A DNA stretch of 64,000 nt, from the NCBI GenBank assembly GCA_963710605.1, contig CAVQBA010000004.1:352001-416000 (forward strand), written 5' to 3'. Shown one piece after another: positions 39,560 through 43,733 of the stretch; the stretch's first letter is position 1; every line of letters starts with the position of its first letter. The translations under genes were made by a program, and so were the position numbers. The notes beneath the pieces are model-generated. The model saw only the letters and a program-made list of their open reading frames with translations. It did no database searches and was not told where the DNA came from. This DNA is from an uncultured cyanobacterium (GTDB lineage: Bacteria; Cyanobacteriota; Cyanobacteriia; Cyanobacteriales; Cyanobacteriaceae).

Positions 39560-41386
39560 ATGAGAGAAAACTTAGAGATAATCTTACAAAACCTCCCCAC
39601 CGATTCGGGAGTTTATTTTATGAAGGATACTCAAGATAATATCCTTTATATCGGTAAAGCTAAAAACCTGCGAAAAAGAGTTCTATCTTATTTTAGAACA
39701 TCAGCTAAACATACTCAGCGTATCGCTTTGATGGTTAGCCAAATAGCGGATATTGAATATATCGTCACCGATACCGAAGCAGAAGCCTTAGCCTTAGAAG
39801 CCAATTTAATTAAAAAACATCAGCCACATTTTAATGTTTTACTTAAAGACGACAAAAAGTACCCCTATGTTTGTATAACATGGTCAGAAGATTATCCTCG
39901 TATTTTTATCACTCGTAAACGTCGTGCAGGTAACAAACTCGATCGTTATTATGGCCCCTATGTCGATACAAGAAGACTCAGAGAAACTCTTAATGTCATC
40001 AAAGCTAACTTTTCTTTACGACAACGACGCAAACCTTTATATCAAAATCGCCCTTGTCTTAATTATGATTTAGGTAAATGCCCCGGTGTTTGCCAAAACT
40101 TAATTACCCCCCAAGAATATCACCAAACAATGGCGAAAATTGCTTTAATTTTTCAGGGGCGAACTGATGAATTAATCAAGCAATTAAAACAACAAATGGA
40201 AGCCGCCGCCGCTATGTTAGATTTTGAAAAAGCAGGTAAACATCGAGATCAAATTATTTCTTTAGAACAATTATTTTCGACTCAAAAAGTTAATTTACCT
40301 AACGATACTATCTCTCGTGATGCGATCGCACTTTATCAAGATGAAAAACATACTTCAATCCAATTATTCCAAGTTAGAGTCGGGCGTTTAATCGGTAGGT
40401 TAGGCTTTTTTACTGATCATGGTGAAAATGACGATAAAGGAGAAATATTACAAAGAGTCTTAGAACAACATTATCAAAATATAGATTCTGTGGAAATACC
40501 CACTGAAATTTTAGTGCAATATCCTTTACAAGATGAAGAAATTTTAACCAGTTGGCTAAGCGAAAAAAAAGCCAAAAAAGTCACTATTATTAAACCTCAA
40601 AGACAACAAAAAGCTGAGTTAATTTCCATGGTGGAAAGAAATGCTCAAATTGAATTAGAAAGAAACCAAAAATTTAGTCAAGCTAATCTAGACAGTATGG
40701 AAGATTTGAGTCAAATACTCAATTTAACCGATTTACCCAGAAGAATAGAAGGCTATGATATTTCTCATATCCAAGGCTCAAATGCTGTGGCTTCGAGAGT
40801 AGTTTTTATTGATGGTGTACCAGCAAAGCAACATTACCGTCATTATAAAATTAAAAATCCTGAAATTCAAATTGGGCATTCTGATGACTTTGCTTCCTTA
40901 CAAGAAATAATTAAAAGACGTTTTTCTCGTGAAGACGATCGACCAGATTTAGTTATGATTGATGGTGGGAAAGGGCAACTTTCTTCTGTCTGCGAAATAT
41001 TAGAAGAAATGAATTTGATGGGTAAAATAAACGTAATTAGTTTAGCTAAAAAAAGAGAAGAGATTTTTCTGCCTAATCAATCTGAGCCTGTACCAACAAA
41101 CCCTGAACAAAAGGGTGTACAATTACTCAGAAGACTAAGAGACGAAGCTCACCGTTTTGCCATCACTTTCCATCGTCAACAAAGATTAAAAGCCAGTCGT
41201 CGCTCTGTTTTAGATGAAATAACAGGTTTAGGTTTTGAACGACAAAAAAGACTCCTCGCTCATTTCCACTCAGTAGATTACCTCAGAGAAGCGAGTGTAG
41301 AGCAGATTATGGCGGTATCTGGTATCGGTGGTAATTTAGCTCAAACCATTTATGATTATTTTCATCCATACAATAATGTGAGTTAG
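39560..41386 (+). CDS. uvrC: Excinuclease ABC subunit C
   Basis: [15 protein letters not shown] (GIY-YIG), [24 protein letters not shown] and an HhH tail. Confidence 0.98.
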
Positions 41387-41440
41387 CTTGTACTTAATTA
41401 ACGTTCGATCGACTTCTATTAAAAAATATTTTGGGTTTGC

Positions 41441-41470
41441 TTGTATTAATGAATTGTTTATGCTTATAAT
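41441..41470 (+). promoter_or_regulatory. Putative sigma70-type promoter
   Basis: TTGTAT (41441-46), an 18-nt spacer, then TATAAT (41465-70), upstream of the structured leader and Abi gene. Confidence 0.6.
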
Positions 41471-41476
41471 AAAGAT

Positions 41477-41540
41477 AATAAAACCCGCCACGGCTAGACG
41501 AAAGTCCCCGCAAATAGGTGGGTTACTTTTTACCTATACA
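41477..41540 (+). ncRNA. Candidate structured RNA leader/antitoxin upstream of the Abi gene
   Basis: GC-rich island in AT-rich DNA: AACCCGCC pairs with GGTGGGTT, CGG with CCG, and GAC-GAAA-GTC forms a GNRA hairpin; a U-tract follows. Confidence 0.5.
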
Positions 41541-41546
41541 TAAGTA

Positions 41547-42431
41547 ATGAAGTTTAATAAAGTTCCTAAGACTATAGATGAACAAATAGAACTTTTATTG
41601 TCTAGAGGAATGATTATTAGAGATAAAAAAAAAGCTCGTGATATTTTAACTCAGATAAATTATTATCGTTTATCAGCATACTGGCTACCTTTTGAAGAAG
41701 ACCATCAAAATCATATCTTCAAGTCAAAAACTGATATAGAAGATGTATTAAATCTCTATATTTTCGATCGTAAATTGAGATTACTTGTTTTGGATGCTAT
41801 AGAAACAATTGAAGTATCTTGCCGTACTCAATGGGCTTATTTTATGGCTCACAATCATGGTAGTCATAGCCATTTAAATGTCACATTAGCTCGAAATCTG
41901 AGTCATTGGAATAGTAATATTGATTCACTTAAAAAGGAAATAGAGCGTTCTAAAGAAGTTTTTATTGAACACTATAGAAGTAAATATACTGAGCCAGATT
42001 TACCACCTGTTTGGGCTGTTAGTGAAGTAATGTCTCTTGGTTCATTGTCTCGTTGGTTTACTAATTTAAAACCAATCAATACTCGAAAACAAATTGCTAG
42101 TCAATATAAAATTAATCATCAGGTTTTAGCTAGTTTTTTACAACATCTCACTGAAATAAGGAATATTTCTGCACATCATAGTCGTTTGTGGAATCGTAAG
42201 TTTACTATAACTTTTACGTTCCCAAATAAACCAAAAGCTTTAGCTAAACAACTTAATAAAGTTGAAAATCGTCGTCTTTTTAATACTTTAGTTATGTGTG
42301 CTTACTTGTTAGATATTATTGATCAAAATAATTCTTGGCGTAAACAATTAGTTACTCTTCTTGAAAAACACAATATTAATATTACTTTAATGGGTTTTCC
42401 TAGTAATTATGGATTATCTGAGTTTTTATAA
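41547..42431 (+). CDS. Abi family (AbiD/AbiF-like, Abi_2) HEPN protein
   Basis: EQIELLLSRGM, INYYRLSAY, LYIFDRKLR..IE.IE, PVWAVSEVMSLGSLS and the HEPN motif RNISAHHSRLWN. Confidence 0.9.
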   Translation: MKFNKVPKTIDEQIELLLSRGMIIRDKKKARDILTQINYYRLSAYWLPFEEDHQNHIFKSKTDIEDVLNLYIFDRKLRLLVLDAIETIEVSCRTQWAYFMAHNHGSHSHLNVTLARNLSHWNSNIDSLKKEIERSKEVFIEHYRSKYTEPDLPPVWAVSEVMSLGSLSRWFTNLKPINTRKQIASQYKINHQVLASFLQHLTEIRNISAHHSRLWNRKFTITFTFPNKPKALAKQLNKVENRRLFNTLVMCAYLLDIIDQNNSWRKQLVTLLEKHNINITLMGFPSNYGLSEFL

Positions 42432-42647
42432 AAAGTCGTACTTATTTTTTAATTAAATACCAAAGGGGTAATCTTAGTTATAAGAATCGATCGTATTTCT
42501 GTTTAAGAACTGTTACTAAATATTAATTATTAAGTTAAACCAACTTTTAATCTTTGTCAGTTTTAGATTAAACTCCGTATAATTACCATATTACATTTAT
42601 TTTCAAAAAAGAATATTTGGCGAGTTAAAACTAATGAGTGATTCATC

Positions 42648-43733
42648 ATGATTAAAAAAAGTTTATTTCTATCTTCAATACTATTACCTTTATCGTTACT
42701 TGTTTCTTCTTGTAATCCCACAACAGGAGTAAAAAATGAAATTGACGATGGAGTAGAAGAGTTAAATGATGCTTTATTAAAATTAGATCAACAATCAAAC
42801 AACTGGCAAGAAGTATTAGTCGAAACCAGAGATACTTTAATCGCCGAAGGAAATTCTACTTTAGCTAATGAAGTTAGTAGCCTGATACGTCAAACAACTA
42901 GCGATATTGGGGTAGAAACTAGATGTACAACCGATTTTTTTAGAGATAGAGCGAGAGAAGAATTATTAAAATTACGATCGACTATCACTAGAGAAACAAT
43001 CAATCTAATTCCTGTGGTTTGTCAGCCTAATCCTAGCTCGATCGATTTTGAGAAAGGCAAACCAAATATCATCAATATAACTGGTTACAATCTAAGTCAA
43101 GATTCAGTTAATCTTTATCTACAAGAATCGGTAAATAGCCCCAAAAAACCGATCAATTATAGTCTTAATTATCCCACTAAGTATTTGATGACGATTATTG
43201 TTAGTAAAATCGAAAATGTCGAAAATAGTCATCAGTTAGTACTAGAATTAGGTAATGGTGGAGGCACACAAACGATCGGGATTCAACAAAAAGCTGAACG
43301 ATTTGAAACAAGATATGTTTCTAGTACAGTCAGAATTACTGGTTCAGTGACACTAAACGACGATGAAATATTTAAAGATGAAGTTAGAACAGTTAACGTA
43401 AATGACACCGTAACTATTACTAATAACAAAAACGGTACTTATAATTGGAATGCCTGTGTAGGTGATGAGGTACATGGATATTTGAATAGTTCGATGAGTC
43501 TTAACCCCATTAATGGTTATATTTCTCTCCAAGGTACTTCAGATTATTACGAAGGTACAAAATGTGGTAAAACAGAACTACAAAAAGATGATAGCTTTAA
43601 TTTTACTTTACAAAAACCTCAGCAAAGTGAATATTCTTACGCCAGACATCTTAAAGATAGTGAAGGTGGAGTGAGGTTCAATTTAAAATTCAAATATTTG
43701 TCGGCTGAAACCGAAGAAGTAAAAGTTGAATAA
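42648..43733 (+). CDS. Hypothetical lipoprotein
   Basis: Lipobox LLVSSC, helical N-terminal region and beta-rich C-terminal region. Confidence 0.65.
   Translation: MIKKSLFLSSILLPLSLLVSSCNPTTGVKNEIDDGVEELNDALLKLDQQSNNWQEVLVETRDTLIAEGNSTLANEVSSLIRQTTSDIGVETRCTTDFFRDRAREELLKLRSTITRETINLIPVVCQPNPSSIDFEKGKPNIINITGYNLSQDSVNLYLQESVNSPKKPINYSLNYPTKYLMTIIVSKIENVENSHQLVLELGNGGGTQTIGIQQKAERFETRYVSSTVRITGSVTLNDDEIFKDEVRTVNVNDTVTITNNKNGTYNWNACVGDEVHGYLNSSMSLNPINGYISLQGTSDYYEGTKCGKTELQKDDSFNFTLQKPQQSEYSYARHLKDSEGGVRFNLKFKYLSAETEEVKVE

Follow-up and report, generated by a model that had tools for sequence, protein, structure and literature searches.

The 64,000-nucleotide (nt) stretch of DNA analysed here (the window; positions 352,001 to 416,000 of contig CAVQBA010000004.1, assembly GCA_963710605.1, from an uncultured cyanobacterium) contains abiF, a gene for an RNase of the Abi_2/AbiD-F HEPN type, together with a short structured RNA element directly 5′ of it. 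The gene occupies positions 41547..42431 of the forward strand (stop codon included) and encodes a 294-residue protein that is predicted to be a toxin; it was assigned from PF07751, PADLOC and the structure 8VZ6. The RNA element, an abiF-motif RNA and candidate AbiFr-type antitoxin, lies at 41473..41535 on the same strand and would be about 50–55 nt long if terminated; it was delimited with the Rfam abiF motif (RF03085), two covariance models (R1 and R2) and folding. The upstream neighbour was identified as uvrC in a Pfam scan. It lies on the same strand, and its stop (41386) is separated from the abiF ATG (41547) by an intergenic gap of 160 nt and stands 96 nt before the hairpin of the RNA element. 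An earlier note on this DNA, made from the letters and their translations, had proposed that a structured RNA leader and an Abi protein form an RNA-antitoxin defence module at this position.

The abiF product matches the Pfam family PF07751 (Abi_2) with an E value of 2.1e-57 and 194.8 bits against a cut-off of 25.6, covering profile positions 2–184 of 184, and matches the PADLOC AbiD model with an E value of 4.1e-77. A scan of the protein against NCBIfam gave no matching model. In a phmmer search of PDB sequences, the only real match was 8VZ6_A (E 1e-40), in which residues 9–288 of the window protein align with residues 13–293. An AlphaFold2 model built from 14 homologues reached a mean predicted local distance difference test score of 92.4. 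With this model, Foldseek returned 8vz6_A as the sole match at E ≤ 0.001 (template modelling scores of 0.88 and 0.87, root mean square deviation of 2.6 Å, 296 columns), an entry whose title is 'PbAbiF dimer bound to ncRNA' (ncRNA, non-coding RNA). The HEPN catalytic motif, located from the homologue alignment, reads RNISAH (R205–H210; 42159..42176, forward strand) and aligns with the catalytic motif of PbAbiF. R205, N206 and H210 are invariant in all 14 aligned homologues, and the hexapeptide conforms to the pattern R-[NHD]-x3-H. In PbAbiF, an R210A+H215A variant is described as inactive (PMC12373285). The reading frame runs uninterrupted over its full length and keeps every invariant residue, in line with the earlier description of an Abi protein with an intact RxxxxH motif.

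The RNA element differs in composition from the DNA around it. A 43-nt block has a G+C (GC) content of 58%, compared with 23% for the remaining intergenic DNA and 33% for the window, and just 0.26% of 43-nt intervals reach the level of the block. From its 5′ end, the element has an A-rich leader (AAUAAA at this locus, AACAA in homologues) and then the stems P1, P2 and P3, of which P3 carries a GAAA loop; CAAAUA makes up the internal loop, and a tail forms the 3′ end. In the folded core (41482..41524, forward strand), defined by the minimum-free-energy and centroid structures and by covariation of P1 and P2, P1 is formed by pairing of AACCCGCC (41482–41489) with GGTGGGTT (41517–41524), one G-U pair included, and P2 by pairing of CGG (41491–41493) with CCG (41508–41510). 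P3 is the hairpin GAC-GAAA-GTC (41497–41506), with its stem at 41497–41499/41504–41506 and the loop GAAA, and the six bases of the internal loop CAAAUA (41511–41516) are single-stranded. RNAfold returns exactly P1, P2 and P3 at −17 kcal/mol, and all coordinates agree with those of the GC-rich block, its two stems and its GNRA hairpin as they had been read by eye. The 55-nt RNA has a z score of −2.73, with 1 of 200 shuffles folding equally well. Every P1 and P2 pair is retained at the window locus.

Directly 3′ of P1 lies the U-rich tail ACUUUUU (41525..41531, forward strand), supported by the T count in homologues and by a terminator scan; it is likely to be an intrinsic-terminator tract or a processing region. 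The scan reports a terminator-like site at 41507–41522 followed by TTACTTTTTA. These positions also hold an alternative 5-bp hairpin, CCCGC/GTGGG (41507–41522, forward strand), which uses the 3′ arm of P1, excludes P1 and stands directly before the U-run. A role of this hairpin as a switch was considered and set aside: the homologue consensus, judged by eye, does not form it, and we take it to be incidental.

A putative promoter of the RNA/abiF transcript (41441..41470, forward strand) was read from the sequence and from comparative −10 spacing. It consists of a −35 hexamer, TTGTAT (41441–41446), an 18-nt spacer and a −10 hexamer, TATAAT (41465–41470). Only half of the consensus-like promoter described in the earlier note stands: the −10 hexamer is identical to the consensus, but the −35 hexamer agrees with TTGACA at 3 of 6 positions. 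Because of the latter, the site is absent from a consensus promoter scan, in which promoter-like sites in the AT-rich stretch showed no enrichment (10 found, 9.3 expected). Across 97 distinct upstream regions, a TAnnnT hexamer ends 11–13 nt 5′ of P1 in 66, and the −10 hexamer at the window locus ends 12 nt before P1. Since this spacing is conserved, the transcription start is placed a few bases 5′ of P1, at a predicted position of about 41476–41479, which is about 70 nt from the ATG. The order ACTTTTT (41525–41531) and then the abiF ATG (41547) is as previously noted, and the distance from the U-run to the ATG is 15 nt. With only these 15 nt available, abiF would have to be transcribed by read-through, unless a promoter lies inside the RNA element.

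To place the element in a comparative setting, homologous loci were collected from two scans: one gave homologues in 20 of the 401 genomes scanned from the same GTDB phylum, and the other, with one genome per species, yielded 597 relatives, the best 80 of which were retained. Nearly all of the upstream regions contain one and the same element: an AACAA-like box, the stems P1 (7–8 bp, GC-rich) and P2 (3 bp), a hairpin that varies, an internal loop and the tail UUACUUnUUU. In a MAFFT alignment of 51 RNAs (A2), the rows of which were chosen by a script requiring a P1-like stem, 86.9% of cells are paired compared with 71.0% in shuffled alignments. In the same alignment, 13 of 16 pairs change on both sides, and none of 500 shuffles reaches any of the measures; as a control, partners slid by 1–3 columns pair at 28–51% only. 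P2, which had no part in the choice of rows, is 98.7% paired, with A-U and C-G pairs in a ratio of 24:23 at one position and G-C and C-G pairs in a ratio of 25:25 at another. RNAalifold, applied independently, arrives at P1 and P2 as well. In a model-fitted alignment of 95 distinct RNAs (A3), 92.3% of cells are paired compared with 75.6% after shuffling, and 13 of 13 pairs covary. Of 92 distinct homologous RNAs, 90 have five or more T residues in the 10 nt that follow P1. One pair of rows in the collection, L006 and L036, is identical.

A coding reading of the region, in the form of a mechanically listed 51-residue open reading frame (ORF; 41388–41543), was rejected on the basis of the compensatory pair changes and of the stops in the upstream frame, which vary in position among homologues. 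The lengths between the P1 arms are divisible by three in 67 of 92 RNAs, a proportion that reflects a few dominant clade lengths and is no argument against coding. The P2–P1 internal loop (columns 51–56 of A2 and A4) falls into the classes CUCAAAYC, GCGCACCC and GCGCCCUG, which track protein clades of a quick tree; this could reflect cognate RNA–protein specificity, or merely shared descent.

The relation of the window RNA to these homologues was quantified with two covariance models. R1, built from the 51 RNAs of A2 with the window locus in its seed, scores the window RNA at 61 bits. With R2, a held-out model from which the window locus and its nearest relative were left out, the score is 51.4 bits (E 8e-11), and this is the sole match at E ≤ 10 in 64 kb. 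Of 100 sources, 96 have an R1 match, in every case upstream of the gene and on its strand, and these include 45 of the 49 sources outside the seed. The four misses (L016, L019, L020 and L021) are the most distant or truncated protein matches. A structured RNA is thus conserved upstream of nearly all homologous genes, and both P1 and P2 covary, as the earlier note had expected of an antitoxin RNA.

RF03085 aligns with 41484–41523 over model positions 1–37 of 37. The window RNA shares with it the P1/P2 architecture and the conserved CCCGCCA...CAAAU.GG.GGGU core, and differs in having a 16-nt structured hairpin instead of the 13-nt model loop, a G-U pair in P1 and a C-G pair in place of A-U in P2. 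Among 35 abiF loci, the RF03085 threshold is reached at 6 (4 of 15 in L002–L016 and 2 of 20 in L022–L041), and R1 finds the RNA at 34, the exception being L016. The loci that pass the Rfam threshold carry the short 13-nt loop. The AACAA 5′ box and the UUACUUUUU 3′ tail of the homologues fall outside the Rfam model. That the Rfam threshold misses most long-hairpin copies is the single new point here, and a modest one.

The RNA is a single-copy element. R1 has one match in the 64-kb window and one in the 3.93-Mb genome, where the second-best match is at 18 bits (E 3.6), and a BLAST search of the genome with the 63-nt element gives only chance matches of 14–23 nt (E ≥ 0.4). The block is therefore not a repeat, in agreement with what had been noted for the window; the assembly is 84.9% complete, so a second copy could lie in unassembled DNA. 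Additional RNA copies were seen at some homologous loci. L010 has two before the gene, about 113 nt apart, and L031 has two that are adjacent. At L049, a second copy (L049:2959-3021) lies 3′ of abiF, ahead of an ATPase-like ORF. At L039, a second copy (L039:2504-2556) also lies 3′ of abiF, just before an ORF with repeated motifs that we take to be a type I restriction specificity subunit.

The carriers of abiF homologues in the phylum, 20 of 401 genomes, fall in 16 of 156 genera, a patchy occurrence of the kind that a defence gene would show. A quick-mode tree built from 94 proteins places the window protein with L003 (support 99) and then with two other cyanobacterial rows (support 89). This group is nested in a clade dominated by Proteobacteria, phyla are mixed, and the rows of the phylum need at least three changes on starred branches. 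The nearest homologue (70% identity) comes from the same family, lies beside transposase-like ORFs and has a different context. The GC content of the abiF gene is 29%, compared with 35% for uvrC. uvrC is present in 14 of 14 genomes of the family, and its flanks in 13 related genomes have nothing in common with the window beyond uvrC itself. Because the uvrC flanks of these relatives match none of the window flanks, no empty site can be demonstrated; the region around abiF is variable. Patchy spread, tree, GC content and context fit a horizontally moving accessory module, to judge from sequence comparison. The long-hairpin form of the RNA also occurs in Proteobacteria, Acidobacteriota and others, and the earlier proposal of a 'cyanobacterial variant' has to be dropped on that ground.

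Several loci in the comparison set have features of their own. Two genomes of the same phylum carry decayed abiF genes. One (L017:1418-2098, genome G028) is without residues 95–200 and has a frame change, with an upstream RNA of 30.7 bits; the other (L018:1501-1751, genome G101) retains residues 1–64 only, with an upstream RNA of 61.4 bits. As both keep the RNA beside toxin remnants, these are orphan antitoxin RNAs. In two proteobacterial loci, the module has a tRNA gene some hundreds of bases upstream (L032:527-599 and L034:1165-1237), which hints at integration next to tRNA genes. Some homologues adjoin a restriction–modification specificity gene or an ATPase gene.

Downstream of abiF in the window, an orphan ORF of 361 residues (42648–43733, forward strand) has an N terminus resembling a signal peptide with a lipobox (…LLVSSC…). 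Scans against Pfam, PADLOC and NCBIfam gave no match for it, and a search of 20 related genomes did not find it. The neighbours of abiF are thus uvrC and an orphan without a family match, and as far as tested the claim that no protein antitoxin is adjacent holds. The best promoter-like site of the region, TTGTCA-18-TATAAT (42554–42583; 11 of 12 positions), precedes this 361-residue ORF.

AbiF/AbiFr is an already known system, published for other bacteria. The abiF motif was catalogued in 2017 (RF03085; cited in PMC12373285), and the term abiF is absent from the body of the article by Weinberg et al. (2017; PMC5737381). In 2025, two studies showed that AbiF and its upstream ncRNA constitute a type III toxin–antitoxin system (PMC12373285, PMC12737573, PMC13064643). 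A literature search on cyanobacteria, AbiD/AbiF and defence systems listed no paper on a cyanobacterial AbiF RNA. For PbAbiF–AbiFr from a Prevotellaceae bacterium (8VZ6; Zilberzwige-Tal et al., Cell 2025), a cryo-electron microscopy structure shows an RNA bulge that blocks the HEPN site (PMC12737573, PMC13064643); C32 and U38 are the bulge nucleotides reported as inhibitory. The window protein resembles PbAbiF in its single HEPN domain, its length of about 300 residues, its end-to-end alignability and its R-N-x3-H motif. In both cases a short conserved ncRNA lies just upstream on the same strand, and the one RNA motif per gene found here fits the one RNA per monomer reported there. In contrast to PbAbiF–AbiFr, with which protein identity is about 31–37%, the window RNA has a longer terminal hairpin and a GNRA loop. 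The earlier view that an AbiF-type HEPN RNase is paired with a structured RNA encoded before it is supported: the protein is related to PbAbiF along its full length, and the RNA is homologous to the Rfam abiF motif.

The AbiFCd–RCd22 system of the Clostridioides difficile prophage phi027 has the same order of parts: promoter, abiF-motif RNA, terminator and read-through into abiF (PMC12373285). Rapid amplification of cDNA ends and Northern blots revealed a single promoter, with a short RNA that dominates over a minor read-through mRNA (PMC12373285). The gene has no separate promoter, the RNA acts as an antitoxin in cis and in trans, and Rx4H is required for toxicity (PMC12373285). RCd22 is about 100–130 nt long and starts 168 nt before the ATG; it has two abiF motifs, and its terminator hairpin is separate from them (PMC12373285). 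The window RNA, unlike RCd22, has one motif, and its P1 abuts the U-run without a separate terminator hairpin; the window module is chromosomal, beside uvrC, whereas AbiFCd–RCd22 is reported in a prophage lysis module.

Two further systems offer partial parallels. In ToxIN and AbiQ–antiQ, an upstream RNA antitoxin inhibits an endoribonuclease toxin, a terminator sets the ratio of the two, and the outcome is abortive infection (PMC13064643). However, the toxin at the window locus has a HEPN/Abi_2 fold and not that of ToxN/AbiQ, and the antitoxin of ToxIN/AbiQ consists of tandem repeats that the toxin cuts into a cyclic complex, whereas a single non-repeated hairpin RNA is found here. With one RNA copy in the window and a HEPN/Abi_2 toxin, the locus falls outside the ToxIN-type definition of type III systems. 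Cas13, which has been proposed to descend from AbiF (PMC12737573, PMC13064643), is likewise a HEPN RNase bound and restrained by a structured RNA. In contrast to Cas13, the window protein would act with one HEPN domain per chain as a homodimer, and its locus is without a CRISPR array, with no spacer or guide segment in the RNA.

Every sequence-level hallmark of AbiF/AbiFr is found at the locus except an Rfam score above threshold. We consider it very probable, from sequence and its comparison, that the locus is a single-copy AbiF/AbiFr module, that is, a type III toxin–antitoxin and abortive-infection system. The mechanism proposed for it matches, by analogy, the one shown experimentally for RCd22/AbiFCd (PMC12373285). 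The promoter with the consensus −10 hexamer would start transcription a few bases before P1, and the RNA would fold as P1/P2/P3 with the CAAAUA internal loop single-stranded. Most transcripts would stop at the U-run after P1, yielding an abundant RNA of about 50–55 nt, and a minority would read through into abiF, the ATG of which lies 15 nt beyond. The AbiF HEPN RNase would dimerise, and one RNA copy per monomer would fill the active site and keep that monomer inactive. Phage infection or stress might then lower the RNA:protein ratio or displace the RNA, and free AbiF would cut cellular and/or phage RNA, causing growth arrest. Termination with read-through, 1:1 binding, active-site blockade, toxicity and a role in defence are steps that we infer from the published systems.

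Several observations weigh against this assignment or temper the evidence for it. The −35 hexamer is poor, and no Shine–Dalgarno-like sequence precedes the abiF ATG. A search for RNA runs covering 41300–42500 listed none. The locus lies outside any recognizable defence island, its neighbours being uvrC and the orphan gene. The comparison with the Rfam abiF motif suggested in the earlier note succeeded in so far as the entire model aligns, but the score of 23.6 bits (E 0.059 in a 401-nt search) is below the gathering score of 37, and by Rfam's own rule the locus would be left unannotated; the shortfall is due to the greater length of the hairpin and to substitutions in pairs that leave the structure intact. 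A whole-genome search with RF03085 listed no match among 150 scored of 1433 candidates, which is uninformative. On folding, 81 nt with flanks beats shuffled sequences only moderately (z −1.79, with 8 of 200 equal). As for the alignments, the P1 pairing percentage in A2 is inflated because its rows were selected for P1, A3 was fitted to the model, and the shuffle counts are not probabilities because the sequences are related. P3 is a variable hairpin, with 61–69% of its alignment cells paired.

Three other explanations were weighed against the same evidence. The hairpin could be a chance GC-rich stem or the terminator of uvrC, unrelated to abiF, and its position 96 nt past the uvrC stop on the same strand would suit a terminator. 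However, this RNA recurs in front of abiF homologues in 96 of 100 sources with differing upstream genes, what follows uvrC in 13 related genomes has nothing in common with the region here, and the held-out model R2 recognizes the RNA at E 8e-11. The occurrence in these 96 sources and the R2 match refute this explanation, and we give it virtually no credence. Greater, though still small, weight is due to the view that the element is a cis-acting leader or attenuator only, in which P1 and the U-run terminator keep abiF transcription low and the RNA neither binds nor neutralises the protein. The U-rich tail that follows P1 in nearly all homologues (90 of 92) is consistent with it, as are the terminator-like site at 41507–41522 with its TTACTTTTTA and the ATG only 15 nt beyond the U-run; in C. 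difficile, premature termination alone is reported to counter toxicity in cis (PMC12373285). A plain terminator, however, needs no conserved P2, internal loop (CAAA or CACC classes) or 5′ AACAA box. Moreover, the nearest solved relative, 8VZ6, is a protein–RNA complex, RCd22 acts also in trans by direct binding (PMC12373285), and the two loci with decayed toxin genes retain the RNA. We therefore regard a role in cis alone as improbable.

Of nearly the same low probability, and if anything slightly lower, is the explanation that the module is intact in sequence but provides no working phage defence, either serving as a selfish addiction cassette or being carried along silently after recent acquisition. 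The non-syntenic neighbours in relatives, the absence of the 361-residue downstream gene from the 20 related genomes searched, the weak −35 hexamer and the decayed copies in related genomes (L017 and L018) are in its favour, and anti-phage activity could not be demonstrated for AbiFCd either (PMC12373285). Against it, the abiF frame is open and full length with all invariant residues kept, all P1 and P2 pairs are kept in the RNA, and lactococcal AbiF/AbiD are experimentally anti-phage (PMC13064643). The interpretation as an AbiF/AbiFr toxin–antitoxin and abortive-infection module is accordingly the one that we prefer.

For the long-hairpin clade, we also entertain, tentatively and with rather less than even confidence, a reading that goes beyond the published systems. 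The antitoxin fold and the terminator could be one and the same 55-nt element, with P1 closed by the UUACUUUUU tail; AbiF binding to nascent P1/P2 could tune read-through, and the internal-loop classes could make co-resident modules orthogonal. Were this so, the toxin:antitoxin ratio would be set by a minimal attenuator that senses the protein.

These results do not overturn the current understanding of AbiF. They add a well-supported AbiF/AbiFr module in the cyanobacterial phylum to those characterised earlier in a Prevotellaceae bacterium, C. difficile and lactococci, and they show that almost every gene in this branch of the family has the RNA partner (96 of 100 sources). Because the Rfam threshold detects the RNA at only 6 of 35 loci, annotation describes such two-component systems as 'single-gene' Abi proteins. 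The compact one-motif form found here, with its putative promoter 12 nt upstream and its U-rich tail right after P1, may be a convenient minimal model for the caging of a HEPN RNase by RNA, which bears on the proposed origin of Cas13.

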